A stretch of DNA of 63,988 nucleotides, counting the filler, from Reclinomonas americana ATCC 50394 (lineage: Eukaryota), in NCBI GenBank assembly GCA_048213135.1. It is 15 parts of 15 records of this genome, joined end to end, with 100 filler letters (N's around TTAATTAATTAA, not from the genome) between each part and the next. Parts side by side here need not be neighbours in the genome. Positions count along the whole stretch, not along the records: positions 33,648 to 36,212 come from AFZH01016955.1; positions 36,313 to 42,350 come from AFZH01016956.1; 13 more parts are not named here. The stretch is one strand, 5' to 3'. The notes under the pieces are model-generated. The model did not search any database. It saw only the letters and a program-made list of their open reading frames with translations, and was not told the origin of the DNA. The first letter of the stretch is position 1; the number at the start of each line of letters is the position of its first letter. Shown here piece after piece: positions 23,987 through 61,955 of this stretch. A program made the translations under genes and the position numbers.

Positions 23987-32496
<8,510 letters not shown>

Positions 32497-33760
32497 GTTG
32501 GGTGAGTGGAGGAGATGAGAGAAATGGAGGGAGGGAGAGAGAGAGAGAAACGGGCGTAGAAGTCTACATATTACGTTTGTTTGTCTAGTCACACTGTTTT
32601 GATTGCGTGCCTATTTGCACGTGTTCCGTTTCTCTTCCTCAGCCCCACTCTTCGTTGTGCAATCGAAGCACTCACTCACCTAGTTGCAAACATGCGTATT
32701 TTCTCGCTTGTGTCCGTACGCGCTGCAATCCAAGTGTTTATTCTCCTGCGACACACTCATTCTTTCCACGCACACACGTCAACAACCTGACATCTGTATT
32801 TTTTTCTTGCGGCGCTGCATGTTCTGCCACCTGCACGCGCTGCAACCCGAGCACAATCTTTTTCTCTGACGACTCAACACGCCTTCGATCCCTTTCTCAC
32901 TCTCATGTTATGCAGCACATGCACGCATTCCTTGTTTCTCGTTCAGCTTCCTGCACCTGCTTTTCAAGTCTTACTTGTGGCTCTTGATTCTCGCTTCTGC
33001 TAGCATGCGCTGCTCACTCACCCGCAATACTTGCATGACACTTGCTTTCACGATCTTGTGCGTGCAACACATGTGTGATTCTCGCTTCTTTGTGCACATG
33101 TCTTGCATCCAGGCACCTGCTCTTTCGCCTGCAGCACCAGCACACACACACGCACACACACACATGCACACACACGCACACACACACACGCACACACACA
33201 CACACACGCACACACAGACACACGCACACACACACATACACACACACGCACACACACGCACACGCAAGCACACACGCACACACCCATAATGCACACAATA
33301 CACACACATACATACATTCACACACACGTAGGCTACGCGCTTCTTCCACACAAGCGTTGCTCTCACTTCGCAAACTCGCTTAGTCCTCGTGTCATTTCTA
33401 CTCCTCGCCCTTTGCCCCTCTTTCTACTCCACGCCCTTTGCCCCTCTTTCTACTCCTCGCCCTTTGCCCCTCTTTCTACTCCCCGCCCTTTGCCCCTCTC
33501 GTCCCCTTCCCCCTCTCCTCACCCTTCCCCCTCTCCTCACCCTTCCCNNNNNNNNNNNNNNNNNNNNNNNNNNNNNNNNNNNNNNNNNNNNTTAATTAAT
33601 TAANNNNNNNNNNNNNNNNNNNNNNNNNNNNNNNNNNNNNNNNNNNNCTCCCTCCCTCCTCTCTCTCTCTCTCTCACTCTCTCCCTCACCTCCCTCTCTC
33701 TCTTCTCCCTCTCTCACTTCTCTCTCTTTCTGCATTCCTGACTCTTGCATCTCTATGCAG

Positions 33761-36145
33761 TCAATGGTCCAACCAGTACAAGTTCAACAGCACAGGCGCC
33801 TTCACAGCACTGTCGCAGGTGAGTGCTTGTTGTGTTCGGATTTGCATGCACAACTCTTTCTTCTCTTGTTCTCCTTGTCAGCATGATCTCCAGTGTTTTC
33901 AAGTCCCTCCGCTCATGCTCTGGTGTTCATTTTCCTCTATTCTCCTTGTGTTCTGGGGTTGGAACGCTGTCTTTCTGCGAGTGTTGTGCTGTTGTTAAAG
34001 GGGTACTCGTGGAGAAGAGTTGGAGAAGTAATTATGTGTTTGTATATTGTTGGTGTGCCAAGGTCATTGTCGGCAAGGGATTTGTGGGCGTTTATCGCAT
34101 TATTGGAATGTGGTGAATGAAGTGTTTTGTTGTTGATCGTGTTCTTTCTCTCCTCTGTGTTTCCGAGGTTCGTGCCATGTGCGATCTCCTGTGGCGTGTT
34201 TCCTCCTTTTCCCCTCTCATTCTCGGCCTGTGTTGCTGTCTCCTTGATTCCGTTGTTCGTCATTTCTGGTCTCCCGTGCGACTATTTCGTTTCCCCTTCT
34301 CTCTGTCTTCCTCGCTCCCTTTCCTTTCTTCCCTCCGCCTCTCTGAAATCAAAAAACAATCTTCCGTATCCATTCAATCTCTTCCCCTCCCCTTATCCCC
34401 TCCCTCCCCCTTTCCCACCCTTTCAGATGCAAGTGGAAACCAGCGCCAACTCTGTCGTCTTCACCCTCTGCTGGTTCCAGCGCTCCGTCGACACCCCCGG
34501 ACCCATCTACCGCCGCAACTCCACCACCCCCACCGACGACGAATTGACCGCCATTGTGCGCCAGGCGCAGTCGCTGGGTCTGCGTGTCATGATCCGCCCG
34601 CTGGTCGATCCCGACTGGGCGTTCCCCGACACGAAAGGGTGAGCTTGGTGGAGACGAATGTGGTTCCAGCCTTTGCTCACCCATGCGCAGCACCGCCCGC
34701 TGGGCCATTGGCCGCCTCTTCTCCGAGAGTCAGTGGGACGCCTGGTTCGCCTCCTACAGCGATTTCATCTGGCACTACGCCGCCCTCGCGCAGGAGTTGC
34801 ATGTTGATCAGTTTTGCGTTGGTGGGGAGCTGCTGATTGCGGCCTGGCATGAGAATCGGTGGCGAAGTGTTGCGTGCGCACGTGCCAGGGAGTATATGAG
34901 GTCGGGGAGACTTATTGTAGAAGCAGGTGATCAGCGGCGTCCGTGCACGGTACTCGGGGCCAATCACATACACGGATATTTACGGCAATGAGTTCTTCAT
35001 TGGGTTTTGGGATGGTGCGTGGTGGCTTGCGCGTGGGATTTACTGTGGTGTGGCATGCGCTGACTTGCATTTGGTTGTATGTGTGTTTGTGATCTGCCTG
35101 GCTGCTCGTGGTACTGGCGTTTGTGCTGATATTTCTCTCCTGTTCTCTCTCTCTCTCTCTCTTTGTTTCTCTTTCGCTCTCTCACTCTTTCTCTCTTTCT
35201 CTCTTCCTCTCTCTATTGTGTGTGCACCGCTACTGTTCCCCACGTGGTGAACGTTATTTCATTTGTGTGACTGTGATATCGTACAATCTCTTCGTCGTTT
35301 TCTTCTCTTGCTCGCGCTGTCTCTCTGTCTATTGTGTGTGTGTAACGCATGTTCGTCTTGCGATGGACATGACACCGTGCTGTTTCGATATCTGTGTACT
35401 CTATTCGGCGTTCTCTCCTCTCTCTTTTTCTTCGTGATTCTACATTTTATGTTGCCTCTGCGCTGCATCCGTCTCTTCTGTCATCTCGTCTCTCTCCCCA
35501 TTCCTTCGTCGCGTTTCTCTTGTATTATCGCCGCGTTCCTCTGTTGCAACATGTTCGCCAGCCCTCGACTACATTGGTTCGTTTCATTCTCATGCTCCAC
35601 TTCTGTGTTTGCATTCACACCTGCATCGCAGGAATCGACGCTTATTACGGTCTCGACGCCACCAACCCCACTCCCGACGTGGACGACCTGGTGAACGCCT
35701 GGCAGCCCATCATGCAGTCGCTCAGTGCGCTGTCGGAGAAGTACAAGGTGCGGCGGATGGGCATGTGTTTCCTGATACCACGAGCTGACTGGATTGCCCA
35801 GAAACCCGTCATCTTTGGCGAGATTGGCTACTGCTCGGTAAGCGCGAGAGGTCTTGTGTCACGCAAGCGGACTGCTAACTGATGTGATGTTTCTTACCAT
35901 TTCTCCCTCCCTCTCGCTCTTCTCTCTCTCTCTCTCTCTCTCCATCTCTCCATCTCTCCATTTCTCTCCATCTTTCTCTCCATCTCCCTCTCCATTTCTC
36001 TCCATCTCCCTCTCCATCTCGCTCTCCATCTCTCCATCTTTCTTTCTCCCTGTCTCCCTCTCTGTCTCTGTTTCCCTCTCTGTCTTTGTCTCTCCATCTC
36101 TCCATCTCTCCATCTCTCCATCTCTCCATCTTTCTCTCCATCTTG

Positions 36146-36212
<67 letters not shown>

Positions 36213-36764
36213 NNNNNNNNNNNNNNNNNNNNNNNNNNNNNNNNNNNNNNNNNNNNTTAATTAATTAANNNNNNNNNNNNNNNNNNNNNNNNNNNNNNNN
36301 NNNNNNNNNNNNTCTCTTGTCTCTCCGTGTCTCTCTCTTTGTCTCACGGTGTCTCTCTCTTTGTCTTTCTCTTCCTCGGATCTTCCTCTCTTTTCTCAGT
36401 CTCTCTTTCTTTCTCTGTGTCTCTTTCTGTCTCTCTCGTTGTCTGTCTCTTCGTTGGATCTTCCTCTCTTTCCCATCTCGCTCTCTCTCTCTCTTGTGTC
36501 TCTTTCTGTCTCTCTCTTTTCTCTCTCTTCCTTGGATCTTCCTCTCCTTTCTTGGTCTTTCTTGTCTCTCTCTTTCTCTCCAATAATGGCTTTCTCTTCT
36601 CCACACTCACTCAATCACCTTCTCCGTCACAGACGTGGTTCCAGGGCGTGTACTTTTGGGCATGGCTCACTGACCCCGCCGACGGCGGTCCAACGAACAC
36701 AAATTACTCGCTGCACGGGAAGCCGGGAGTGGAGGCGATTATCAAGAGGAATTTTGAGGGTTGA
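33761..36764 (+). CDS. GH113-like glycoside hydrolase (beta-mannanase-type TIM barrel), paralog A; the first exon and one internal exon were not found and may lie in the adjacent gaps
   Basis: Exons are 33761-33818, 34427-34638, 34691-34868, 34927-35014, 35562-35576, about 35631-35747, about 35802-35837 and 36633-36764. Motifs: TPTDDEL..AQSLGLRVMIRP, WFASY, CVGGEL, YSGPITY, FWDALDYIGIDAYY, KPVIFGEIGY, WFQGVYFWAW and GKP. Confidence 0.85.
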
Positions 36765-36989
36765 GTGAATGGTGAATGATGGTTGTCTTAATGGGGTTGC
36801 GTGGCCTCACACCAAGTGCTTGGAGAAATACCGACGTCGACAGTCACGCAAGTGACTGTTTTCATTGTCGCAGCAACAAAGTAAAATTGTGACATAAAGG
36901 GAGGTGGTGAGTGCACTGCTGCAACAGGCAGGTGCACCATGAGGCTTGATCACTGTGAAGTGCATTGTTGCAGGACATTTGAGTGACTG

Positions 36990-37137
36990 ATGTGGAGACG
37001 AACAGGCCTCGCACTTCTCTGTTTGCAGGCGCTGTGTCTCACATGTGCACTGTTGATGGTGCAAGCGAGTCCACAGAAGCAGAATGGATTCAACTTTTTG
37101 AATGGGTGAGGAAGAGTGAGGGAAGGAGAGAGAGTGA

Positions 37138-37176
<39 letters not shown>

Positions 37177-40100
37177 TAGATAAGAGTGCGTGTTGTGGGA
37201 ATGAGTGAAGGAGTGGGGACCTCGAGATGCGTAACGGGCGACCAGAGAGGCAGCCATGCAGAGAGGCAGAGGCGGAGAAATGGACTTCTGAAGGTGATAT
37301 CAACGAGAGAGTGAGAGAGAGAAGAGATGGGAGAGAGGATCCGAGAGGCAGCAATGCAGACAACCAGAGGGAGGCAGAGGCGGAGAAATGGACGAGTGAG
37401 ACTGATAGACAGAGAGAGAGAGAGAGAGGTAGAGGTGCAGAGAAGCTGAGAGCCACCACCTCAGTGAGAGAAGAGAAGCGCAGAGAACGAGAGAGACATC
37501 TCGAGAGCCGTGACTGAGAATGTAACAAGGCACAGACAGTCCAAGAGCCTCAAAGAGTGAATGGATGATGAGAAGATATCAATCAAACGAGGGAAGATCA
37601 GGATGCAGTCAGTCAAACTCAGCCATAACTATTCAAGAACACTGAGAGGCAAGTCTGCTCATTTACTCCATTCCCCCTCTCCCCTCTCCTGCGACAGTGA
37701 ATGGTCCAATGCCTTCAAGTACGACAGCGCTGGAGCCTCCGACTCGCTCTCTCAAGTTCCATCCAATCCACTCCACTCCACTCCTTCTTCTTCTGCTCTC
37801 CGCTCACTCACTCCCAACCACAGTTACACTCCCAGACGCAGGCCAACTGGATCACACTGACCTACTGCTGGTTCCAGCGCTCCATTGACCTCCCAGGACC
37901 CATCTATGCGCGCAACCAGACCACGCCCACTGACGAGCAGCTGACGGCGATTGTCAAGCGAGCGCACGCACTCGGCGTGCGTGTCATGCTGCGACCGCTA
38001 GTCGACCCCGACTGGTCGTTTCCCGACACGCAAAAGTGCGTGCATCATCCCACACACATTTCGCCCCGTCTCCTCCTTGCTGCGTGCTGGCGTTCTATTC
38101 AGTATTCTCACTCTGGCCGTGCTCTGTCACTCACCTGCTCTCTTCCATCATGCGTGGCTTGGGTTGTTTCGCGTTTCCCGTGCTCTTTCTGCACTCCCTT
38201 CTCGTCCTCTCGTTGTCATGCGATTTCTTCATTTTTCATTGTTCAGACCCCACTTCACTCCTTCCCTTCATAGTATCCCACAGTGTTCCCATCCACCTCC
38301 GCATCCGTCGCCTTCAAGCAGATTCCCCCCATTGCCGTCCTCATTCCCTCCTTCCCTTTTGCCTGCCAGCCTGTCCTCCTTTTCTCTTCTCACCAACCCT
38401 CGCCGTCTTTTTCCATCCTTCCACCACACTCCACTTCCATTGTCTTCTCCTCCCCTCCCTTGTACCGTTCATTCTGCCCCGCTCTTTCCTCATATCCTCG
38501 CGCACCCACCAACCTGTCCTCCTTTTCTCAACTCACCACCTCCTCGCCGTCTCCCTCCATCCTTCCTCCCGCAATCCTCTTTCCATCTTCTTCTCCTCCC
38601 CTCCCTTGTTCCTTTCATTCTGCCTCACGCTTCCTCAATTCTCGCGCACCCACCTAACTGTCCTCCTAATCCTCCACGCCGTCTCCTTCCATCCTGCCTC
38701 CCGCAATCTTCTTTCCGTCTTCTCCTCCTCCTTCCCATTTGCCCTTTCTTCGGCCCCGCTCTTTCAACATATCCTCGCGCACCCACCAGCCAGTCCTCCT
38801 TTTCTCCTCTCACCACCTTCACACTGTCTCCTTCCATCTTTCCGTCTTCTCCTCCTCCCCTCCACTGTGCCCTTCATACTTTCCCGCTCTTTCCTCATAT
38901 CCTCGCGCACCCACCAACCTGTCCTCCGTTTCTCTTCTCGCCACCTCCTCGCCGTCTCCTTCCATCCTTCCACCACACTCCACTTTTCATTGTCTTCTCC
39001 TCCCCTCCCTTGTACCGTTCATTCAACTCCACGCTTCCTCAATTCTCGCGCACCAGCAAGCATTTCCTCCCTGTCCTCCTCTCACCACCTCCTCGCCGTC
39101 TCCTTCATCCTTCCTCCCGCAATCCTCTTTCCATTGTCTTCTCCTCCCCTCCCGTGTGCCCTTTCTTCTGCCCCACTGTTTCCTCAATTCCTGGAGCACT
39201 CACCTAACTGTCCTCCCCTCACCACCTCCTCGCCGTCTCCTTCCATCCTTCCTCCCGCAATCCTCTTTCCGTCTTCTCCTCCTCCCCTCCCGTGTTCCTT
39301 TCATTCTGCCCCACGCTCTCCTCATTTCTCGCGCACCCACCTAACTGTCCTCCTAATCCTCCTCTCGCCACCTCCACGCCGTCTCCTTCCATCCTGCCTC
39401 CCGCAATCCTCTTTCCATCTTCTTCTCCTCCCCTCCCCTGTGCCCTTCATTCTGCCCCGCTCTTTCCTCTTATCTTCGCGCACCCACCTAATCCTCCTCT
39501 CGCCGCCTCCACGCCATCACCGTTCTTCCGTTCTCCGTCTTCCTCCCATCTCCCGTCGCCGTTTCAAGTCTAATCCTCCTTCCCCTCTTCTTCTCTTCCC
39601 TCGCAACAGCACCTGGCGCGGCATGATTGGCCGGAACTTCTCCCCCGACGACTGGAACACCTGGTTCGCCTCGTATCAGGCCTTTATCTGGCGATACGCG
39701 TCGCTGGCGGCCGCGGTGGGTGCCGATCAGTTTTGCGTGGGTGGCGAGTTGGTGATTGCGGCGCTGCAGGAGCAGCATTGGCGGGCAGTTGAGTAGGGGG
39801 TGCGGAGGAGGGGATAGGGCAAGGGGAGGGAGGGAGGGAGGGATAAGGAGAGAAGAGAGAACGAGAGAGAGGGAGAAATCAGAGAGGAAAGCAGGAGGAG
39901 TATGAGATGGATGAAGGAAAGAGACAGGCGGACGGGAGAGAGACAAGGAAGGAAGAGGGTGAGGGAAGGAAGAGGGAAAGAAGAGAAATGGAGAAATAGT
40001 GGGAGTAAATGATGTTAGTGGGCGAGGTCGATTGGGAAGAGAAGAGTGGAGAAGAGTGAAGAGAGGGTAAGATAAAAGAGGCGAGAGGAGAGACGGAATA

Positions 40101-41960
40101 CTGAGAGACAAGGGTGGGTGAGAAAAAAAGGAGGGTGAATGAGTGCGAGGATGAGTGAGAGACGGCTGGATGGAAGAGAGAGAATGATCTCTGCAGATTG
40201 GGACAAGATGAGATTCAACTCAAGAGAACCATTCTCTTCTTTTCCTGACGTTCATTCCACTGTCGATCACAGGTAATTGCTGGTGTGCGAGAGCGATATC
40301 ACGGTCCCATCACTTACAATGCGAATCATGGAAACGAGGAGAATGTGGCGTTCTGGGACGGTGCGATCACAGTTTTTTTGCGCATCATCATCAGTATCGC
40401 CTCTCACAAATTGTTGTGTTGCCCTTTATTTGTCGGCAGCCGTTGACCTGATCGGTACGCTCATGTTCGTGAGGAAGCTGTTGGCACACCTGTTTTGACA
40501 CGTTCAGCGCTCCACAGGCATCGATGCGTATTACCCACTGGCGCCCGACAACTTGAACCCGACGGTAACGGACTTGGTGCAGGCGTGGCAGCCGATTGTG
40601 AATGAGCTGCAGGGCATGTCGGCCAAGTACAATGTTGCGTTGCTTGTGTGATGCCTCTGGTGAGATTGCTGGCTCACTGCGTCGTTGCAGCGCACTGTTA
40701 TTTTTGGCGAGATTGGCTACTGTTCGGTGAGTGGTGCGGGGGGAATGGGGAGAGGGGGACGGATTGTTGACGAGGAAGAGAGATGAGAGGGAGGGAGAGA
40801 GCGAGAGAGCGAGAGAACGGAGGCAGATGGAGGAAGAGAGACATGTGGAGACGAACAGTGGAGAGCGAACGAGATCGTCGACGTTTCAATGAATGCAGCA
40901 AGAGAATGAGTGCCTTACGGGAGACAGGCAGAGTGAGGAACAAGAGAATCGTCAGTGAGAAACACAGTGAGTAATGAGTGAGGGGCACAAGGCAGTTCGC
41001 GAGCTGAAGCGGAGACGAACGCGAATGGCATTTGTATTAAGGAGTGCATGTGAACAGTCACTAACGGTGAGAGCACAAGCGCTGAGAAACGAAGAAGACA
41101 GTGAAGACGTTTAAAGTGTGAGACGAACAGAAGGATTGAGGGCATGGAAAAGGCGCATGAACTGCAATTCGGCCAGTCACTGACGGGTGAGAATAGATGC
41201 GTGGAGGACAGATGGAGACACTGAAGGTGTAGAAAGCAGAGATAACAAGAGAGAAGCGCGTAAGATTGGCGGAAGGCAATGAACCAGTCAGTAAGAGATG
41301 GTAGCAGATCCGTTGAGGAACGAAGGCGACTGCAAAGATATAAAGCAGAGACACAGAGAGCAATGAGAGGTTAGAGAGCAGGCACAAGGAACTGCGACGC
41401 GACCGAGCAGTGAGAACAGATCGTGGAATGACAATGGCAACCGCGGGAGCGAAGACAGAGACTGAATAGAAGAATTGGGAGCCAGGAGAGACGAGGAGTA
41501 AATCGTGTCATTGCGTGGCGACAGGCTGATTCTCTCACCTCTGCGCAGTCGGCGCAAACGAATGTCGACCCTGCGCACTGCACGGACAACAAGACTCTCG
41601 ATCCTGCCGCACAGGAGGTGGCCTACCGAGCATTCTTCGAGGCGGTGTACTCGCAGGTGAGGAGCTGTAGCACGTGTGTTGGCGAGAGTGCACGTCCGAT
41701 CTGTGAGAGCAACAATAAGCAGAATCTGAGCTCTGTTGTGCCATGTCTCGATACCCGTGTCTGCCTCTCTCATGCGACCCCCCCTCCCGCAGCCATGGTT
41801 CACCGGCGTGTACTTTTGGGCGTGGCTCACCGATCCGCAGGATGGTGGCGCCACCGACGGCGGCTTCACCGTGCACAACAAACCCGGAGTGGAGCAAATC
41901 ATTCGTGGATTCTTCACCGGCCAGACGCAGGTTGCGCTGATTCGCAGTGAAGCAGTGTAA
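36990..41960 (+). CDS. GH113-like glycoside hydrolase, paralog B; complete 10-exon model with a signal peptide
   Basis: Exons are 36990-37105 (MWRRTGLALLCLQALCLTCALLMVQA..QNGFNF), 37698-37755, 37824-38035, 39610-39787, 40273-40360, 40440-40454, about 40518-40633, 40691-40726, about 41549-41657 and 41793-41960, all in frame. The putative catalytic Glu residues are in GGEL and FGEIGY. Confidence 0.88.
38360..39500. repeat. Intronic CT-rich degenerate minisatellite
   Basis: The motifs tcgcgcacccacc and cctcgccgtctccttccatcc...cccgcaatcctctttcc recur inside a 1574-nt intron. Confidence 0.8.
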
Positions 41961-42450
41961 GACTGACTTTGTTGTGCCTTTTCCCGGAGATTGGGTGCAA
42001 GTGCGTCAAGTTCGTGCACTGCACCACGCATTGTGCGGTGATAATCGCAGTTCTCGACTTGTTCGAAGCTCCGAGAGCTAACAAAACCTGCCACTGCCGC
42101 ATGCCTTGGGTGTTTGTTTTGACGGTGTCAAGGGGCATGGACGCAAGATACAAGGGCCTTTTGAGGAGAACTGGCTTCTTGACGACTCTCGCAGTGAGTG
42201 GCTTGGACAGTGACAGGGCAGGAGAGGACAGATGGCACTGTTTATCAACTGAATGAGGCTGGTGATTCTCGGAGAGCACTGCTTTCATCGCGAGCTGTCA
42301 AGGGTCCTTGTGTTACGATCAAAGCGTGCAGGCCAGTGATAGTTACTGTTNNNNNNNNNNNNNNNNNNNNNNNNNNNNNNNNNNNNNNNNNNNNTTAATT
42401 AATTAANNNNNNNNNNNNNNNNNNNNNNNNNNNNNNNNNNNNNNNNNNNN

Positions 42451-43043
42451 GTATACTGAGGTTTCTGGAAGAGGAGAACGGAGCAGTCACAACCGTAATC
42501 CGATTGTATCTGTCCGTTCTTCTCTTGTTTGTATTCACAAAGAGCGTGTTGTGACTGCTGTTCCTCTGGAAGAAAATAGGGCATGACAGCCGGACGACGC
42601 ATGTGTTTACCTCCTTCCCGAGCTCTTGTCCTGTTCGTCTCAGTGCTCAACTTGCGTTCGCTCAAGAGGTTCTTGGACCAACCATGACCACTTAGTTGCA
42701 CTTTCAAGGGTCAAGGGCGATGCAGTTACCGTGCCCGGGTCCTTCTGCGCCAATCCAAGAAGCCAAATCAACGGCCAACAGGGTAGCCGCTAGATACTAT
42801 TACACCAAGACGACCAGGGCGCTCGCAGATGACCTCATTCACACCCCCTTCACGAGAAAACGAACAAACGTCGCATGTCCACGTGTCCCGCGCATCTTTC
42901 CATCTACGTAAACCCTCCGTCACATCGCGCGGAGTTGTTGCTCTGCAAGTGAGCAAGTCTCACACTAAAACAAACAAACAACAAAGGAGAGGAAGAACAG
43001 GCCACTCACTCCACGAGCAAAGTGAGTTGGCGATCACTGACAT
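42451..43043 (-). CDS. Possible small-exon gene of unknown function
   Basis: High-complexity sequence with plausible splice sites (for example tag|YLAATLLAVDLASWIGAEGPGH G|gtaact) and an ATG at 43043. There is no recognisable motif and no convincing full model. Confidence 0.25.
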
Positions 43044-43362
43044 GGCGCACATCTCTTTTCTCTCTCCCTCTCTCTCTCATTGCTCTCTCTCTCTCTTTGT
43101 GTGCAGAACAAAAGGATGTTGGCTCTGTTGGTCCGACGGACGACCGGTGAGCTCTTTATTTCTTGTGTTGTCGCATCTTTTTTCACGCTTTGTGATGAGT
43201 GAGTGTGAGAGTGTGAGTGTGAGTGAGTGAGTGAGTGTGTGAGAGAGAGAGAGAGAGTGACAAGCATTGTAATGTAAGAGAGTGCATGTGTGAGAGACAG
43301 CTCATTGTTGATGTCACTCAGTGAATGTTTGTGCATGAGAGAGAGAGAGCGCGAGGGCGAGG

Positions 43363-43407
<45 letters not shown>

Positions 43408-43612
43408 TGTGTGTGCGAGTGAGAGAGAGAGAGACGACACTAGTATATAGTAAGTAAGAAAGACGCGCACACTACTCTCTCACACTCTCTCTCTCTCTCT
43501 CTCTCGACTCACNNNNNNNNNNNNNNNNNNNNNNNNNNNNNNNNNNNNNNNNNNNNTTAATTAATTAANNNNNNNNNNNNNNNNNNNNNNNNNNNNNNNN
43601 NNNNNNNNNNNN

Positions 43613-44396: not shown

Positions 44397-50088
<5,692 letters not shown>

Positions 50089-51315: not shown

Positions 51316-54300
51316 ACGCGGGCGCAGTTTTTTCAGTGATGTCCACGCTGTCCTCTTGATGTCGCACTGTGTCGGCTCATTTCCGTGATCACGCGAACGC
51401 GCGAAAAAAGACCGTTGAGAGACAACTCAATTCGCGCCCTTTTTTTTCTCTTTTCTTTTCCAGCTGTCTCTCCGGCCAACATCGCCATCAGAACCGGCAC
51501 CGCTGGCCAGATCGTTGACATCAATGTCGCTGGCTCGGCCATTGCCTGGTCGCCTGCCTCCACTGCCACTCTCTTCCTCGACCGCGCGTGCACTGGCGTG
51601 TCGCCGACCTCCGTAGTTAACTCCAGCACCATCTCTGCTGCCTCGCTCACCTTTAATGCGTCGGGTGATGTCAATGGTGGTGAGCGATACCTGTGCATCG
51701 ACGTGGACGGTGCGGGCGCGGCCGCGCGCAACGAGTTTGTGGCCACTGTGTTTGTCTGTTGCGTCTCCATCACTCTCCCTCGCCTGTGCCTCCTCCGACT
51801 GACTCCATCCTCCCCTTCACCCCCCCCCCCCCCCCCACCATCCACGCAGACACCCTTGGTTTGCAGAACAAGTCGCCGCAGCTGGTCAATGGTCTCGCCG
51901 ACTATCGCCTGACGGTGGCTGGTCAGCACTTTGCCAATCGTGAGCTGGGTACTGGCGGCTCGTTCGGCCTGTACTCGGCCGCCGATTGCAGCGGGTCGAC
52001 GACACCAAACTCGAGCGTCACTCTGCAGGCCAGCGATCCGGCTGGTCTCTACACTGTGTTCTCGGTGGCCACTGGCTCATCGTTCGCGCAGGGTGCGCTG
52101 GGTGTGACGGCCGCCGGCTCGTGCTCGCTGGCGTCGCCGGGCGTGTACTATCTGTGTGGCAAGTTGCGTTGATGTGCGGGAGAGAAAGGGCAACACTCAG
52201 TAGTTTGTAATCATGTGAGGTCCGCCGCCTCCAAAAGATGTGAAGAGAGAGGAGAAGAGTTGGGACGAGAAGATGAGGGAGGTTGAATGGAAGAGAAGAG
52301 AAAGAACCGGAAAGAAGAGAAGAGACGCTTGTGTGATTCGAGTCCTGCTCTGCCCTCTGCATTCCTGATGTGCCTGCTACTGTTCTTCTTTCTCTTCGTG
52401 TCTCTAACGTAATCACACGCTCACTCCACTCTCCTTCTCCTTCTCGCCCCTCTTCTCCCTCTCTTTTTTTCTTATCCCGATTCCTCTTCTCCTTCCTCTC
52501 CTCCTCTCCCTCTCCCTCCCTCTGCCTCCTTCCTCCATCTCTCTAACTCACTTTGCCCTTCCCCACCATCAGATTCCAGGCCGGCGGCACCACCGTGTAC
52601 CGCCTGCAACCCCTCCCGCTCATCGTGACTGCCGCCTCATCGACGCCTGCGATCTCCTTTGCCAATCCGCCCGTGCTCAAGTACGGCATCGCCAACTCGA
52701 TTGTGATTGGTTCCTCCACTGAGAACCTCACCGACTGCACGAGCTTCAAGCTGGTGCCGGCCGGCGTCGATTGCGCCACTCTGTCGGACTACTCGACGCT
52801 GACGGGCAGCGTAGGCGCGTCGTTTGTGCGCGGTGGTGCCGACACATGTGAGTTTGCGACTGGCTGCCGCGTGTTCCGCGCGACTATCACGCCGAACGGG
52901 TCGAGTGGCGGCGGTGCCTACAAGTTGTGTGTGGCGGCCAACAACGGACCGTACGTGTCGGCGGAGGAGTCGTTCACTGCCGGATTCATGGCGGCCGGTG
53001 GTCTGAGTGCGAGCAGCAGCGCGGCACCCACATCCTCGCTGTCGACCGCTGACGACATGGACAGCGGCCCTGCCACCCCCAAGCCGAGCATGTCAACACT
53101 GGCAGTGACGGCAACCACGATCCAGTTCACGTTTGCTCGCGAGTTCTACCGCCGCCCGCGCGTGTTGCTCGGCTTTGCCAGTGTCGGTCGTCAGGGCGCC
53201 GCTGGCCCAATTTCCACTCTTGCCAACGAGCCGGCTGACGGCACTTTCGCGTTCTGTGCGGAGCCCGTGGTGACTGTGGCGCAACTGTCGACTCGCTGTC
53301 ATGGCGTGTCGGCGGACGGCCAGCCGGGACCCACCATCACGCTGAGTTGCGTTCACTACGATAATGGACAAGGCATTGAAGTGAGTGACTCATCATCTTC
53401 CCTCCGCTTTGCTGCATGTACAGGCTACCTGGCGTACTACGTGCATCAGACGAATACTCTGTCGATGGATGGTCAGCGGTCGCTGACAAGCGCAGCGTGG
53501 ACGTCGGATGCGGTGAACAAGAACAGCTCAACTGTTGCGTGATTTTTGTGAGTCCTCGTCTCTCTTGCGCCTGCTCATCCAGCTTACTTCGTGTCATGCA
53601 CAGTTGGTGAGCGTGTCGTCCGCGTATCAGTTTGCATCGGTGCCAGCCGTTCCCGTGGCCGTGATCGGTGTAATGTCGATGCGCCAGTCGGCTGCCGGCA
53701 ATGATGGACGCGTTCGCGGCGACAACTTTTCGGTGACAAGCAGCTCGGTCTCGCGCTCGAGTTTCGTGCTCAAGGGCACGGTGAGCGGCGACTCACGCAT
53801 TGAAGCGGTGTCTGCGCGCTTTGCTGTGGCACCGACACGCGCCGACAGCACCAACAACAGCGGATTCGTCATGCTGTCGGGAGGTGCGTTCTCATCCTCC
53901 CCTTTGGTTGGAGCGATATCAGGTTGTCTCTGTGTCTGACCCCGTGCGTGTGGCGCAGAGACGACGCACACCAGCGCAGCGACGACACAGACCGCGAGTC
54001 TGGTGACAGCGTCGACCCCCAACGGCCTGTTGCGCGCCACCATCAGTGTGCAGCTTTTCCTGCGTGGGTGGAAGTCGTCGGCAGTGATTGTGCAGAACCG
54101 CATCGACAAGCAGTCGCTGCAGTTCACCACGAAGCGCCTCGGCAATGAGTACTATGTGACGGCGATCTCGTACGGCGCCAGCGGGGCGGACGCGTCCGAC
54201 ATTGAGTATGTGACGTGGGTGGCGATTGGTCGTGCGGCGCAAGGCGCACCGATCTCGTGCCCTGTCGGCTATAGCGGCTCCAACTGCGGCGTGTGCACGC

Positions 54301-57300
54301 TGCCCGACGGTACCACGACGTGCTCACTGAACCGACGTGCGGTGCTGAGCTGTGCCTACGGCACCACTCAGATTGTTGCTGAGTGTGCCGAGGGCCGCGA
54401 GTGCTTTGAGTCTTACGGCTCGGCGCAATGTGGATGCTCGGCGAACGGTGCTGTGTGCGTGAGTAGCGGCGATTGCTGCTCTGGCAGCTGTGATTCTGGT
54501 CTGTGTGTGCCAGCGTGCAGCCCGACCACGACGTGCTCTGGTCATGGAACGTGCAACGCCGATGGCACTTGCAGCTGCACTAGTCCATGGAATGGTGAGT
54601 GATGGTGTTGTCCTTCCTGTTGTTGTGAGCTCTGTGAATGCTAGTATTCCGTCGTGTTAACATAGGCCCCTCATGCTCAACCTGCTCCGCTAGTCCTGTG
54701 GTTGCTCTTGGGTACATTGGCAGCTGGAGATCGGTGGCCTCCAGCAGTGACGGCACTAAATTGGTGGCTGTGACGAATGGCAGTCAGATTTACACCTCCA
54801 CCGACGCTGGTGTGACGTGGATAGCTCGCGATTCCAATCGCTTTTGGTGGTCAGTGGCCTCCAGCGCCGATGGCACCAAACTGGTGGCCGTTGAAGATAC
54901 TCGCCGAATCTACACTTCCGCTGACTCTGGCGTGACTTGGACGGCTCGCGACTCCAGCCGCCAGTGGTTTGGAGTGGCCTCCAGTAGTGATGGCAGCAAA
55001 CTGGTGGCTGTGGTGCTTTTTGGGCAGATTTACACTTCTGCCGACTCTGGCGTGACGTGGACGCCTCGCGAGTCCGATCGCAACTGGAATTCAGTCACCT
55101 CCAGCAGTGACGGAACCAAGCTGGTGGCTGTGGCGATTGGTGATCAGATTTACACTTCTGCCGACTCGGGCGAAACATGGACAGCTCGTGAGACCAATCG
55201 CGCCTGGATTTCAGTGGCCTCCAGCAGTGACGGCAGCAAGCTCGTGGCTGTGGCGGTTGATGATCAGATTTACACTTCCACTGACTCGGGCGAGTCGTGG
55301 ACAGCTCGTGAATCCAGTCGTAACTGGACTGGAGTGACCGCCAGCAGTGATGGCGCGAAGCTGGTAGCTGTCGATGGTGGTGGTCAGATTTACACTTCCA
55401 CTGACTCTGGAGTGACGTGGACGCCTCGTGATTCCACTCGTGACTGGGTCTCAGTGACCTCCAACAGCGACAGCACCAAGTTGGTAGCGGTGGTGAACAA
55501 TGGGCAGATGTACACCTCCTCAGACTCTGGCGTGACGTGGACTGGGGTGACTTCCGCAGGACTACATGCGAAAAGTCTCTGGACTTCAGTGGACTCTAGC
55601 AGTGACGGTACCAAGCTGGTGGCTGTGGTGTTTGGTGGCCAAATCTACACCTCTGCTGACTCGGGTTTATCGTGGATTGCTCGTGAATCCGCGCGCCGCT
55701 GGCAGTCAGTGGCCTCCAGCAGTGACGGTGCTAAGCTGGTGGCTGTGGCGGATTTTAGACAGATCTGCACATCCGCTGACTCCGGTGCGACATGGACGCC
55801 TCGTGATTCCAGTCGCCGCTGGTTTTCAGTGGCGTCCAGCAGTGACGGCACCAAGTTGGTGGCTGTGGAGCAGAATGGCCGAATCTACACCTCTGCAGAC
55901 TCTGGTGAGACGTGGACGGCTCGTGGTTTCAGTCGCCACTGGCGTGGAGTGGCCTCCAGCAGCGATGGCACCAAGCTGGTGGCTGTGGTGATTGGTGGTC
56001 AGATTTACACCTCCACTGACTCGGGCGTGACATGGACGCCTCGTGATTCCACTCGTGACTGGTTATCTGTGGCCTCCAGCAGCGATGGCACCAAGCTGGT
56101 GGCTGTAGCAAGCTCTGATCAGATCTACACCTCCACTGATTCGGGTGTGACATGGACGGCTCGTGATTCCGCTCGCAGCTGGACTGCAGTGGCCTCCAGC
56201 AGTGACGGCACCAGGCTTGCGGCTGTTGCAGACAACGATCACATGTACATCTCCACTGACTCTGGCGCGACGTGGAAGCCTCGTGATTCCAGTCGCAATT
56301 GGCTGTCAGTGGCCTTGACGAGTGACGGCACCCAGATTGTGGCATCGGCAGATCAGGTGTATGTTTTCGCGTGCATTCCGAACTGCGTGGCGGCCACCAC
56401 GTGCTCTGGTCACGGAACGTGCAACACTGACGGCACTTGTCTGTGCACGGACGACTACACCAATGCGAGCTGCAACTGCAGTCCCACTGCGACGTGCTCC
56501 GGTCACGGTACATGCAAGACTGACGGCACGTGTCTGTGTGCGGGCGACTACACCAATGCCAGCTGCAACTGCAGTCCCACCGCCATGTGCTCTGGTCATG
56601 GAACATGCAACACCGATGGCACATGCCAGTGCACGGGCGACTACACCAATGCCAGTTGCAACTGCAGTCCCACCGCCACGTGCTCTGGTCATGGAACATG
56701 CAACACCGATGGCACATGCCAGTGCACTGGCGACTACACCAATTCCAGCTGCAACTGCAGTCCCACCGCCACGTGCTCTGGACACGGATCATGCAACACT
56801 GATGGCACATGCCAGTGCACGGGCGACTACACCAATGCGAGTTGCAACTGCAGTCCCACTGCCACGTGCTCTGGTCATGGAACATGCAACACCGATGGCA
56901 CATGCCAGTGCACGGGCGACTACACCAATGCCAGCTGCAACTGCAGTCCCACTGCTACGTGCTCTGGTCACGGAACGTGCAAGACCGATGGAACATGTCA
57001 GTGCACGGGCGACTACACCAATGCCAGCTGCAACTGCAGTCCGTCTGCCACGTGCGCTGGCCACGGTACATGCCAGAGTGACGGCACGTGTCTGTGCACG
57101 GGCGACTACACCAATGCCAACTGCAACTGCAGTCCCACTGCCACGTGCGCTGGCCACGGTACATGCCAGAGTGACGGCACGTGTCTGTGCACGGGCGACT
57201 ACACCAACGCCAGTTGCAACTGCAGTCCGCTGCGACGTGCTCTGGTCACGGAACGTGCAAGACTGACGGCACATGCCAGTGCACGGGCGNNNNNNNNNNN

Positions 57301-60300
57301 NNNNNNNNNNNNNNNNNNNNNNNNNNNNNNNNNTTAATTAATTAANNNNNNNNNNNNNNNNNNNNNNNNNNNNNNNNNNNNNNNNNNNNACCGCCACATG
57401 CTCTGGACACGGAACGTGCAAGACCGACGGCACATGCCAGTGCACGGGCGACTACACCAACGCCAATTGCAACTGCAGTCCCACCGCCACATGCTCTGGC
57501 CACGGAACGTGCAAGACCGACGGCACATGCCAGTGCACGGGCGACTACACCAACGCCAGTTGCAACTGCAGTCCCACCGCCACGTGCTCTGGTCATGGAA
57601 CATGCAACACCAATGGAACGTGTCTCTGCACTGGCGACTACACCAATGCCAACTGCAACTGCAGTCCCACTGCCATGTGCTCTGGTCATGGAATATGCCA
57701 GAGTGACGGCACTTGCCAGTGCACTGGCGACTACACCAATGCCAGCTGCAACTGCAGTCCCACTGCCTCGTGCTCTGGTCATGGAATGTGCAACACCGAT
57801 GGAACCTGCACTTGTACAAGTCCTTGGAGTGGTGAGTAATGCGACTGCTGTCGACCGTGAATTCGCTGCTACTCAATGCTGACTTGTTCCCGCGAACAGG
57901 GCCCGCGTGCGCAGCCTGCTCTGGCGATCCTGTTCTCTCCCTCGGATACATTGGCAACTGGGCATCATTGGCCTCCAGCAGTGATGGCACCAAACTGGTG
58001 GCTATAGAGAGTGGCAGTGGTCAGATCTACACCTCCACTGATAGCGGTGCGACGTGGACAGCACGTGAGTCCAGTCGCAGTTGGACTGCAGTGGCATCCA
58101 GCAGTGACGGCACCAAGTTGGTGGCTGTGGTGTATGATGGCCAAATCTACACCTCTGCCGACTCTGGCGTGACGTGGACGGCTCGCGAGTCCAGTCGCCG
58201 CTGGATTTCGGTGGCCTCCGGCAGTGACGGCAGCAATCTCGTCGCAGTTGCTCAGGCAGACAAGGTTTACACCTCCACAGACTCCGGCGCCACGTGGACG
58301 CCTCGCGAGTCCAATCGCAACTGGACTTCAGTGGCCTCCAGCAGCGATGGCACCAAGCTGGTGGCTGCAGTGCAAGGTGGCCGAATCTACACCTCCACTG
58401 ACTCGGGTGTGACATGGACGGCTCGCGATTCAGTCGTAACTGGTGGTCAGTGGCGTCCAGCAGTGACGGAGCCAAGTTGGTGGCTGCGGTGAGCGGTGGT
58501 CAGATTTACACCTCGACCGACTCTGGTGCAAATTGGACAGCTCGTGATTCCAATCGCAGGTGGTATTCAGTCACCTCCAGCAGTGACGGCAGCAAGCTCG
58601 TGGCTGTGGCGATTGGCGGTCAGATTTACACTTCCACTGACTCTGGCGTGACATGGACGCCTCGTGAATCCACTCGTGACTGGCTATCAGTAACCTCCAA
58701 CAGTGACGGCACCAAGTTGGTGGCTGGGGTGCGCAGCGGGCAGATGTATACCTCCACTGACTCTGGCGTGACGTGGACTGGGGTGACTTCCCAGGGACTC
58801 CATGGGAAGAATACCTGGCAGGCAGTGGCCTCCAACAGTGACGGCACCAAGCTTGTTGCAGCTGTGCAAGGGGGTCAGTTGTACACCTCCACTGACTCGG
58901 GTGTGATATGGACGGCTCGTGATTCCGCTCGTGAATGGACTGCAGTGTCCTCCAGCAGTGACGGCACGAAACTGGTGGCTGCAACACGCTTTGATCAGAT
59001 CTACACCTCCGCTGACTCTGGAGTGACATGGACTGCTCGCGAATTCAGTCGCAACTGGACTGGAGTGGCCTCCAGCAGTGACGGAACCAAGTTGGTGGCT
59101 GTAGCACGCATTGATCAGATCTACACATCCACTGACTCGGGCGTGACATGGACTGCTCGTGCTTCCAGTCGCGGTTGGCAATCAGTGGCCTCCAGCAGTG
59201 ACGGAACCAAGTTGGTGGCTGCAACACGCTTTGATCAGATCTACACATCTACTGACTCGGGTGTGACATGGACGGCTCGCGATTCCGCTCGTGACTGGAC
59301 TGCAGTGGCCTCCAGCAGCGATGGCACCAAGCTGGTGGCTGTGGTGAACGGTGGCCAGACCTACACCTCCACTGACTCGGGTGTGACATGGACGCCTCGT
59401 GAATCGAATCGCGCCTGGACTGCAGTGGCCTCCAGCAGTGACGGCATGAAGCTGTCGGCTGTGGTGAGCAATGGTCAACTGTACGTCTCTTCTGACTCTG
59501 GCATGACGTGGACGTCTCGTGATTCCAATCGCATCTGGCTGTCTGTGGCTTGCAGCAGTGACGGCATCAAGCTCGTGGCCGGTGCGGATCAGGTGTACGC
59601 TTTCTCGTGTATTCCTAGCTGCAGTCCCACCACCACCTGTTCGGGTCATGGAACGTGCAAGACAGACGGCACATGTCTGTGCGATACCGACTATTACGGT
59701 GCGTCGTGCAGCGTGAACTGTGTGGCGGGCACGACGTGCTCTGGTCACGGAACGTGCAAGTCTGACGGCACGTGTTTGTGCACTGGCGACTACACCAACG
59801 CCAGCTGCAACTGCAGTCCCACTGCCACCTGTTCGGGTCATGGAACATGCCAGAGTGACGGCACGTGTCTGTGCACTGGCGACTACACCAATGCCAGTTG
59901 CAACTGCAGTCCCTCCGCCACGTGCGCTGGCCACGGTACATGCCAGAGTGACGGCACGTGTCTGTGCACGGGCGACTACACCAATGCCAGTTGCAACTGC
60001 AGTCCCACTGCCACGTGCTCTGGTCACGGAACATGCCAGAGTGACGGCACTTGCCAGTGCACGGACGACTACACTAATGCGAGCTGCAACTGCAGCCCGA
60101 GCGCCACGTGTTCTGGTCATGGAACGTGCAACACCGATGGAACGTGCACTTGCGCAAGTCCTTGGAGTGGTGAGTAATGCGATTGCTATCGACCGTGAAT
60201 TCGCTGCTGTTCAATGCTGACTTGTTCTCGCGAACAGGGCCCGCGTGCTCAACTTGCTCTGCTAGTCCTATTGTTTCCCTTGGATACATTGGTAGCTGGA

Positions 60301-61955
60301 AATCCTTTGCCTCCAGCAGTGACGGCACCAAACTGGTGGCTATAGAGAGTGGCAGTGGTCAGATCTACACCTCCACTGATAGCGGTGCGACGTGGACAGC
60401 ACGTGAGTCCAGTCGCAGTTGGACTGCAGTGGCATCCAGCAGTGACGGCACCAAGTTGGTGGCTGTGGTGTATGATGGCCAAATCTACACCTCTGCCGAC
60501 TCTGGCGTGACGTGGACGGCTCGCGAGTCCAGTCGCCGCTGGATTTCGGTGGCCTCCGGCAGTGACGGCAGCAATCTCGTCGCAGTTGCTCAGGCGGACA
60601 AGGTTTACACCTCCACGGACTCTGGCGCCACGTGGACGCCTCGCGAGTCCAATCGCAACTGGACTTCAGTGGCCTCCAGCAGCGATGGCACCAAGCTGGT
60701 GGCTGCAGTGCAAGGTGGCCGAATCTACACCTCCACTGACTCGGGTGTGACATGGACAGCTCGTGAGACCAATCGCTTTTGGCAGTCAGTGGCCTCCAGC
60801 AGTGACGGCACCAAATTGGTGGCTGTAGACAATGGCAATGGTCAGATTTACACTTCGACCGACTCTGGTGCAAATTGGACAGCTCGTGATTCCGGTCGCA
60901 GTTGGAATTCAGTCACCTCCAGCAGTGACGGCAGCAAGCTCGTGGCTGTGGCGATTGGCGATCAGATTTACACTTCCGCTGACTCTGGTCTTACATGGAC
61001 GCCTCGTGAATCCACTCGTGACTGGCTATCAGTAACCTCCAACAGTGGCGGCACCAAGTTGGTGGCTGGGGTGCGCAGCGGGCAGATGTATACCTCCACT
61101 GACTCTGGCGTGACGTGGACTGGGGTGACTTCCGAAGCGCTACATGGGAAAAGTCCCTGGCAGGCAGTGGCCTCCAGCGGTGACGGTACCAAGCTAGTGG
61201 CAGCTGTGAATGGAGGTCAGTTGTACACCTCCACTGACTCGGGTGTGACGTGGACGGCTTGTGAATCCACGCGCAATTGGCAATCAGTGGCCTCCAGCAA
61301 CGATGGCACCAAGTTGGCGGCCGTCGCGCAAGGCGATCAGATCTACACCTCCACTGACTCTGGAGTGACATGGACTGCTCGCGAATTCGGTCGCCACTGG
61401 ACCGCAGCGGCCTGCAGCAGTGACGGAACCAAGCTGGTGGCTGTAGCAAGCTTTGAGCAGATCTACACATCCACTGACTCGGGCGTGACATGGACGGCTC
61501 GCGAATCCAGTCGCCTCTGGCAATCAGTGGCCTCCAGCAGTGACGGAACCAAGCTGGTGGCTGTAGCAAGCTTTGAGCAGATCTACACCTCCTCTGACTC
61601 TGGCATCAACTGGACGGCTCGCGATTCCGCTCGCAACTGGCAATCAGTGGCCTCCAGCAGCGATGGCGCCAAGCTTGTGGCTGTTGAGCAAGGTGGTCAG
61701 ATTTACACCTCCTCTGACTCTGGCATCAACTGGACGGCTCGTGATTCCGCTCGCAACTGGCGGTCAGTGGCCTCCAGCAGCGACGGCACGAAGCTTGCGG
61801 CTGTTGCAGATAGCGATCAACTGTACATCTCCACTGACTCTGGTGTGACGTGGACAGCTCGCGATTCCAGTCGCGTCTGGCTGTCTGTGGCCTGCAGCAG
61901 TGACGGCATCAAGCTCGTGGCTGCCGCGGACCAGGTGTATGTTTTCTCGTGTTGA
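51026..61955 (+). CDS. Giant secreted modular protein: signal peptide, unknown beta domains, three H-type-lectin-like domains, EGF, and three 14-repeat Asp-box/BNR propeller modules separated by EGF arrays; two apparent 1-nt frameshifts
   Basis: The signal peptide is MPRTKHVRHSTAIVCLLVLLSLTALCRTAAA. Approximate exons are 51026-51122, 51464-51757, 51850-52162, 52572-53533, 53604-53884, 53959-54594, 54666-57831 (spans a gap), 57900-60168 and 60238-61955. It carries SxDxGxTW Asp-boxes and CSGHGTC EGF units. Frameshifts are near 57229 and 58431. Confidence 0.82.
54715..56375 (+). repeat. Asp-box repeat module 1 (14 units of 120 bp, arranged 7+7); modules 2 and 3 lie at about 57950-59610 and 60290-61950
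   Basis: The 40-aa unit is TARxSxRxWxSVASSSDGTKLVAVxxxxQIYTSxDSGVTW. A longer linker (TGVTSxxLHxKx) follows unit 7 in every module. Confidence 0.93.
56385..57831 (+). repeat. EGF-like tandem array (93-bp unit, at least 15 copies, broken by a gap); a second array of 6 lies at about 59620-60168
   Basis: The 31-aa unit CSPTATCSGHGTCxxDGTCxCTGDYTNASCN has near-identical DNA between copies and an NAS N-glycosylation sequon in most units. Confidence 0.93.

Follow-up and report, generated by a model that had tools for sequence, protein, structure and literature searches.

Last exon base and a GTTG(A/C)GT donor class in a 64-kb window of Reclinomonas americana nuclear DNA: a possible one-base shift of the U1 register

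In the ordinary register of 5' splice-site (donor) recognition, the last exon base, G at −1, pairs with C9 of U1 small nuclear RNA (snRNA) and the first intron base, G at +1, pairs with C8; human sites read one base out of this register number a few dozen. The numbering agrees with a figure legend in PMC4856993, in which the human U1 5' end is printed as AUAC-psi-psi-ACCUG. This shifted +1 register was described for human sites by Roca and Krainer in 2009, as cited in PMC4856993, and the ‘Shifted +1’ test oligonucleotide of that paper reads ACA/GUCAAGUAUA. According to the same source, such sites fit U1 badly in the ordinary register and well after a one-base shift, G at +1 replaces G at −1, and the cut is made at the upstream GU. 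Here we report on a 64-kb window of eukaryotic nuclear DNA from R. americana ATCC 50394 (assembly GCA_048213135.1, ∼54% G+C; ‘the window’ denotes this whole stretch), in which 15 of 50 modelled donors have the same layout, CA/GU-N-AAGU in the human oligonucleotide corresponding to CA/GTTGAGT here, and are tied to the base with which the preceding exon ends. The human sites are rare and have AAGU as their consensus where the present ones have G(A/C)GT, whereas the present ones are known from sequence alone.

Other described systems resemble these donors in part. The bulge and asymmetric-loop registers described by Roca et al. (2012) and by Tan et al. (2016, PMC4856993) share with them an extra U at +2/+3 and a site longer by one base, but keep G+1 on C8 and gain from −1G, which is absent here. 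In the −1G/+5G compensation treated in PMC8283771, loss of the exon-end G goes along with a stricter intron side, as it does in this window, where the bases at +4 (G), +6 (G) and +7 (T) hardly vary in the non-G class; however, the usual compensation keeps the positions in place, whereas here a base is added and the rule is close to all-or-none. Tunicates, according to PMC13326754, likewise underwent a lineage-wide change of donor rule in which snRNA changes are said to be involved, but they lose GT/AG dinucleotides, whereas every intron modelled here is GT-(C/T)AG. Searches of open-access text turned up no genome described as having donors of this kind as a major class dependent on the last exon base, though a genome paper may already mention it. 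Shifted and bulged registers are already known as rarities in humans; a major class, ∼30% of modelled introns, linked to the exon end may be new.

The rule observed in the window is that an exon ending in A, T or C is almost always followed by an intron starting GTTG(A/C)GT, and an exon ending in G by one starting GT(G/A)(A/C)G. The evidence consisted of the window itself and of protein relatives, and the sample comprised 50 modelled donors from six genes, 27 of them supported by homology. With the shifted class defined as GTTG(A/C)G donors (full consensus GTTG(A/C)GT), 15 donors fell into it, preceded by T in eight cases, A in six, C in one and G in none. The remaining 35 included 32 donors after G, and the three exceptions (38036, 37756 and, on the minus strand, 12059) all follow A. 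Association of class with −1G gave a Fisher p of 3.6e-10 over all 50 donors and of 8.5e-4 over the homology-supported junctions only (−1G in 0 of 4 shifted vs 21 of 23 others). The initial annotation of this DNA had noticed the relation in a pair of paralogous genes resembling glycoside hydrolases of the GH113 family, where it reaches p = 0.018 (Fisher, 16 donors), a pair too small to carry the rule alone; beyond these paralogs class follows the last exon base just as proposed, in that none of the 12 shifted donors there but 21 of the 22 others come after G (p = 2.4e-8). A test independent of the class definition agreed: the +3 base is T in 16 of the 18 donors that follow a base other than G, and in 2 of the 32 that follow G (p = 4.2e-9). 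Among the 18 donors after such non-G exon ends, 15 take the shifted form and only three the plain one. Since non-donor copies of GTTG(A/C)G carry −1G in 16 of 61 cases (hand count), its complete lack among the shifted donors is not a matter of base composition.

Position by position, the shifted class reads from +1 to +7 G (15), T (15), T (15), G (15), C (12) or A (3), G (15) and T (14), and the ordinary class from −1 to +6 reads G (32 of 35), G (35), T (35), G (26), A (20) or C (12), G (30) and T (19). When the two heptamers are superimposed, only the second position differs (GTTGAGT vs G/GTGAGT). The combinations of −1 and +5 inside the shifted class were eight T/C, three A/A, three A/C and one C/C (hand-calculated p ∼0.055), for which no co-variation is claimed. 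The heptamer GTTGMGT showed no enrichment in the window, with 25 copies against 21.2 ± 4.9 in shuffles; 14 of these 25 are modelled donors lying exactly at the ends of coding stretches, and when the copies were ranked by upstream coding score, the top ones ended open frames with stops just after. An excess of GTGMGT (197 vs 100) was set aside as evidence, being inflated by (GTGA)n microsatellites.

The two GH113-like genes lie on the plus strand. Paralog A occupies 33761–36764, with eight exons seen and its 5' end and one internal exon lost in the gaps 33548–33647 and 36213–36312; paralog B occupies 36990–41969 and is represented by ten exons from start codon to stop. Translated comparison of 33650–36900 with 36901–43500 yielded eight colinear coding blocks. 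The claim that the two genes share intron positions holds true, though of the seven comparable positions only four had been covered, and the three omitted (i4, i5 and i7) all follow G; the eight donors cited at that time were all found in place with the bases given for them. As the seven positions and their phases are all common to A and B, the introns predate the duplication.

At the sixth shared position (i6), A ends its exon in KYK with aag/GTGCGG (35748–35754) in the ordinary register, whereas B ends it in KYN with aat/GTTGCGT (40634–40640), a shifted donor, so that the two copies differ both in the −1 base (G vs T) and in class, as had been proposed. Exon lengths are equal in A and B here and intronless relatives are ungapped, so the extra T sits in the intron, and the K/R that relatives carry at the next residue is obtained only with GT-AG boundaries. 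This is the one clean case of a class switch at a homologous intron; with both classes at one position, class does not stay fixed along an intron lineage. At the third position both copies are shifted: A has agt/GTTGCGT after WRS (34869–34875), placed by protein colinearity with relatives, and B has gca/GTTGAGT after WRA (39788–39794), colinear with intronless relatives; the next exon starts with GT in both copies, and the boundary can slide by one or two bases with the mRNA unchanged. The first position (LSQ) had been put forward as another switch, with cag/GTGAGT in A (33819–33825, ordinary register) and caa/GTTCCAT in B (37756–37762). The B donor does have T at +3 and is the sole in-frame GT there, but it fits neither consensus and makes a weak example. 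The second position (PDTK/G) provides a counter-case, agg/GTGAGC in A (34639–34645) and aaa/GTGCGT in B (38036–38042) both being of the ordinary register, the latter after A. The other three positions follow G in both copies: i4 (FWD/A) reads atg/GTGCGT (35015–35021) and acg/GTGCGA (40361–40367); i5, behind a 15-base micro-exon, reads ttg/GTTCGT (35577–35583), with T at +3 and yet G and T at +5 and +6 as in the ordinary register, and tcg/GTACGC (40455–40461); i7 (GYCS) reads tcg/GTAAGC (35838–35844) and tcg/GTGAGT (40727–40733). In each case A is given first and all are on the plus strand. Paralog B has two further donors, tgg/GTGAGG and cag/GTGAGG.

Counted by hand, two of the three positions that differ in −1G also switch class, compared with none of the other four (p ∼0.14), a weak indication of the correlated change that had been anticipated. 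Class switching by insertion of a single T is plausible, and either order of −1G loss and T gain would be viable on paper; a state in which G is lost and T not yet gained can exist, because i2 of paralog B reads aaa/GTGCGT. No switch was seen between the WD40-repeat tandem duplicates on the minus strand (981–4235 and 4336–7580; 84% identical, with long single exons of more than 1100 codons), in which both 5' introns are ordinary after G in both copies. A search for orthologous intron pairs among 15 GH113-like metagenome loci gave none, as all of these loci are intronless.

The placement of the GH113 junctions is supported by several comparisons. The Pfam GH113 profile PF22612 scored 30.2, 51.1, 32.1 and 49.7 bits on four single exons (cut-off 27), one exon matched solved endo-beta-1,4-mannanases with E = 2e-9, and a profile built from the third exon of both paralogs retrieved 1128 relatives at E ≤ 0.001; no match turned up among longer proteins for exon 2 of paralog A. 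Membership of the GH113 family is indicated by the profile scores above the cut-off together with colinearity with known members, and the stretches VGGEL and GEIGY, which we take to have a catalytic role in GH113, align with relatives. Spliced A and B proteins were colinear with 12 relatives, with no insertions or deletions at junctions. The 15 loci mentioned above (L001–L015) came from a contig scan of metagenomes, and spliced paralog B gave a single unbroken tblastn alignment with each of them (residues 16–361 in the case of L002). In nine of the 15 alignments, which were inspected, there was no gap at WRA/V, on either side of the micro-exon, or at KYN/R, GYCS/S and YSQ/P. At LSQ/L the intronless relatives are shorter by one residue, and at PDTQ/N they lack three to four residues in a variable loop, so that this junction rests on the two paralogs and on eukaryote-like relatives. 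The micro-exon itself (35562–35576 and 40440–40454, plus strand), encoding (A)LDYI(G) and (A)VDLI(G), is present in both paralogs and colinear with intronless relatives. The closest full-length GH113 relatives in the contig scan, with 39 to 48% identity, are intronless, and each window copy is interrupted at least nine times; in short eukaryote-like fragments of related proteins, the sequence seems to run on into introns, which lie at other positions. On these sequence comparisons, the introns of the GH113 family may be fairly recent gains.

It is hardly credible that the true junctions lie elsewhere and that the pattern results from the choice of GTs, although frame continuity is the only support for 23 of the 50 donors and many of these were picked by eye with the hypothesis known beforehand. 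The four homology-supported shifted junctions and the 23 other homology-supported ones obey the rule by themselves, at the p value given above. In addition, an in-frame stop follows two to five codons past 52163, 53534, 39788 and 40634, which excludes later donors there, and a heptamer that is not enriched in the window would have more than half of its copies, 14 of 25, exactly at coding-stretch ends. In the genes other than the GH113 pair, exons were read from the sequence and the joined exons verified as uninterrupted frames; our own codon-usage exon-chaining predictor, which is weak and split known genes, served as a pointer only. Left out of the tally were three minus-strand repeat-gene junctions, each with two or three frame-compatible GTs (one of them offers caa/GTTTCGC, which would be the shifted form of G/GTTCGC), the alternative donor 44804 (caa/GTGCGT, with which a 31-base intron would remain), the alternative donor 29232 (cca/GTGAGG, of the wrong phase for the next exon), and six more ordinary-register donors after G in WD40 and BNR tandem copies.

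Both donor classes are embedded in introns of the same make. All 50 modelled donors start with GT, and all 42 acceptors end in CAG (40) or TAG (2), with CAG in 13 of 13 shifted introns and 27 CAG plus 2 TAG among the 29 others. The pyrimidine fraction at −15 to −4 is 0.66 in shifted introns and 0.69 in the others, short (52–92 bases) and long (300–1574 bases) introns occur in both, and the first base of the next exon shows a similar spread. The likeness of acceptors, pyrimidine content and lengths argues for one spliceosome rather than a U12-like or otherwise separate intron family, and points to handling of both classes by the same major (U2-type) spliceosome. Introns of the U12 type, whose donor consensus is RTATCCTT, do set a precedent for genomes with two donor consensuses, the second of them sharply defined, but all 15 shifted donors read GTTG(A/C)G, unlike that consensus, their acceptors and pyrimidine tracts are those of the ordinary class, and class changes between paralogs.

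Descent of the shifted introns as a family of their own, either from mobile ‘introners’ or as a minor-spliceosome class, appears very unlikely to us. Two introns of one gene (24248–24290 and 25563–25605, plus strand) have ∼20 bases in common after the donor, and introns in the window are full of tandem repeats, which speaks for such descent; yet these two fall into different donor classes, tcg/GTGGGT being ordinary and gca/GTTGAGT shifted, and they may simply be related introns that differ by a donor indel. Moreover, no conserved bases were found past +7 among the 15 shifted donors, acceptors and lengths match those of the other class, and at KY(K/N) one paralog is ordinary and the other shifted. 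Four intron starts, when aligned, proved uninformative on account of their low complexity.

The observations that a mechanism has to accommodate are thus the sequence rule, the homology-supported junctions (four of them at shifted sites) and the 3' ends common to both classes. We give about an even chance to the reading that all these are ordinary major-spliceosome introns, the shifted class of which is read by U1 one base out of register. U1 snRNA would then bind both classes alike; in the shifted class G+1 would lie on C9, U+2 would face C8 unpaired, and U+3 to U+7 would pair as +2 to +6 do in ordinary donors, C9 being paired with the first intron base and not with the last exon base. Cleavage would take place at the only available GU, one base upstream of the cut point set by the U1 register, the GU being picked by later steps. 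U1 as the reader, its register, its standard 5' end, the choice of GU in later steps and the mutational route are all inferred from the pattern. When paired by hand with the human U1 end, GUUGAGU forms two to three pairs in the ordinary register and six pairs with one mismatch in the shifted one, and protein colinearity places cleavage at the upstream GU for 39788, 40634, 49870 and 34869; for three of these (34869, 39788 and 49870) a one-base slide of the junction would leave the mRNA unchanged. Somewhat more tentatively, and with a little less than even confidence, we suggest that G opposite U1 C9 would be demanded so strictly that the last exon base dictates the first intron bases, about a third of the introns being cut one base off the U1 register.

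Several points weigh against this reading. The pairing scheme takes for R. americana the U1 5' end that PMC4856993 prints for human. Six genes in a single 64-kb window make up the sample; every junction was placed from the sequence and none from cDNA, and the 23 donors that depend solely on reading-frame continuity include 11 of the 15 shifted ones. The three minus-strand repeat-gene junctions were dropped as ambiguous. Each of the two GH113 coding regions also has a copy of the motif after G at its 3' end (36760–36766 and 41931–41937, plus strand), the stop codon of paralog A lying inside the one at 36760; these would break the rule if spliced to an unseen 3' exon, though they show no sign of splicing. 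The −1 base of the shifted donors is mostly T and would face U10 of U1, which pairs with A. Finally, shifted non-G/GUUGCGU forms as many pairs as plain non-G/GUGCGU and has one extra mismatch. The idea that the extra T ‘compensates’ for loss of −1G gains no support from this count, as shifted pairing to the human U1 end is no stronger than that of plain non-G/GTGCGT. With equal pair counts, stability alone fails to explain why the plain form is so rare after non-G, and something beyond simple pairing must enforce G opposite C9, candidates being a variant U1 with A at position 8, contacts with U5 or U6, or a U1-associated protein.

The first of these candidates, a dedicated second U1 with A in place of C at position 8 and perhaps other changes, would match GUUG(A/C)GU without mismatch and would imply two readers within one spliceosome; we consider it possible but improbable. 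A perfect-match reader would suit the great uniformity of the shifted class (G at +4 and +6 in 15 of 15, T at +7 in 14 of 15), and the benefit of the extra T is left unexplained by pair counts with a standard U1. Expressed human U1 variants have been reported (PMC3561869 and PMC10870369). The fifth position leans slightly, and not decisively, towards a separate reader, but its A/C mixture, 12 C to 3 A in the shifted and 12 C to 20 A in the ordinary class, was not significantly different by our analysis, and an Rfam scan of the whole window gave 0 matches. As far as the original proposal of one spliceosome with two registers is concerned, the common acceptors, pyrimidine content and lengths bear out its first half, while a second U1 changed at position 8 fits the data on the second half equally well.

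The downstream pairs would be the same if U1 kept G+1 on C8 as usual, one U of +2/+3 bulged out and pairing resumed at +4; bulges of this kind are listed for human sites, with 68 predicted and 54 left after curation, in PMC4856993. In this arrangement −1G should add a pair with C9 and be favoured or at least neutral, yet it is seen in 0 of 15 shifted donors as compared with the 16 of 61 non-donor copies, and a bulge would not account for the extra T being confined to donors that lack −1G. The bulged register is ranked below the shifted one because it would gain from a −1G that is never present, and we hold it to be unlikely. Alternatively, the rule may be set later or by proteins, through U5 loop 1 at the exon end and U6 at +4 to +6, or through U1-associated proteins. 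This we regard as unlikely also, and a requirement by such factors for an exon-end G or an extra spacer base as a similarly thin prospect. According to PMC8283771, U1 pairing by itself does not account for the link of exon-end G with +5G in human sites, and U1 pair counts fail to explain the rule here as well. The agreement of the shifted heptamer with the −1 to +6 heptamer at six of seven positions is, however, what a U1 footprint predicts.

The remaining shifted donors are distributed over four other genes. An FtsH4/YME1-like protease gene (44397–50088, plus strand; 12 exons) encodes a spliced protein colinear with 12 relatives, and its Pfam coordinates run on across the junctions (AAA 1–34 and 37–130; Peptidase_M41 2–20, 23–45, 47–108 and 154–189). 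It has cgt/GTTGCGT at 44771–44777, for which the in-frame alternative caa/GTGCGT at 44804 is the one mentioned above, and caa/GTTGCGT at 49870–49876, the donor of a 54-base intron whose read-through would add 18 residues without counterpart in 12 of 12 relatives. A gene for a protein with coiled-coil, CAP-Gly and EF-hand regions (23987–32501, plus strand), in which CAP_GLY positions 1–35 and 38–65 flank the 31311 intron, contains five shifted donors: gca/GTTGAGT (25563–25569), caa/GTTGAGT (26783–26789), gca/GTTGCGA (28733–28739), gat/GTTGCGT (30363–30369) and aat/GTTGCGT (31473–31479), the last directly past the CAP-Gly domain. Inside the 31473 intron, an altered repeat of the exon end plus donor, aac/GTTGCGAG, is found at 31590–31606 (plus strand).

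In a gene that starts from ∼51466 on the plus strand and runs into BNR/EGF repeats, shifted donors were modelled at 51758–51764 (tct/GTTGCGT), 52163–52169 (caa/GTTGCGT) and 53534–53540 (act/GTTGCGT), the last two with an in-frame stop after them. BNR/Sortilin-like tandem genes with teneurin-type EGF repeats and ∼77% identity lie at 54516–57000, 57753–60147 and 60091–61951 (plus strand). The minus-strand repeat-protein gene (13400–10462) has atc/GTTGCGT at 12415–12421, the sole shifted donor with C at −1, act/GTTGCGT at 10455–10461, which ends the long exon 10462–11715, and the exception caa/GTAAGT at 12053–12059, an ordinary-register donor after A. Exonic copies of GTTGCGT after A occur at 27909–27915 and 53346–53352 (plus strand) and are apparently unused; use of the former would produce a 23-base exon. 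A perfect gaa/GTGAGT with a CAG 43 bases on (53381–53423, plus strand) lies within a long open exon and is probably a decoy, since its use would throw the reading frame onto a stop.

Long introns (for example 39795–40200, 45340–46100, 48800–49510, 30780–31060 and 38100–39600) tend to have a purine-rich, GGAGGA-like start and a C/T-rich repeat end, and these two ends could pair with each other; throughout the window, long introns contain microsatellites or tandem repeats of ∼130 bases. The window also holds fourteen 100-base assembly linkers, all 14 of which fall within microsatellite or repeat tracts.

How the exact cleavage site is chosen after U1 leaves, and what weight the exon-end G carries, remain questions in splicing, and human shifted-register sites are too few for a population study. 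If the shifted U1 register proposed here is true, a genome with ∼30% shifted introns would provide thousands of natural test cases, together with paralog pairs that capture switches, and would be a natural genome-scale system in which U1 binding and the choice of the 5' cleavage site are uncoupled and introns pass from one form to the other with the drift of exon-end codons. Gene-finding programs that learned from ordinary donors would overlook or misplace one in three introns of R. americana.

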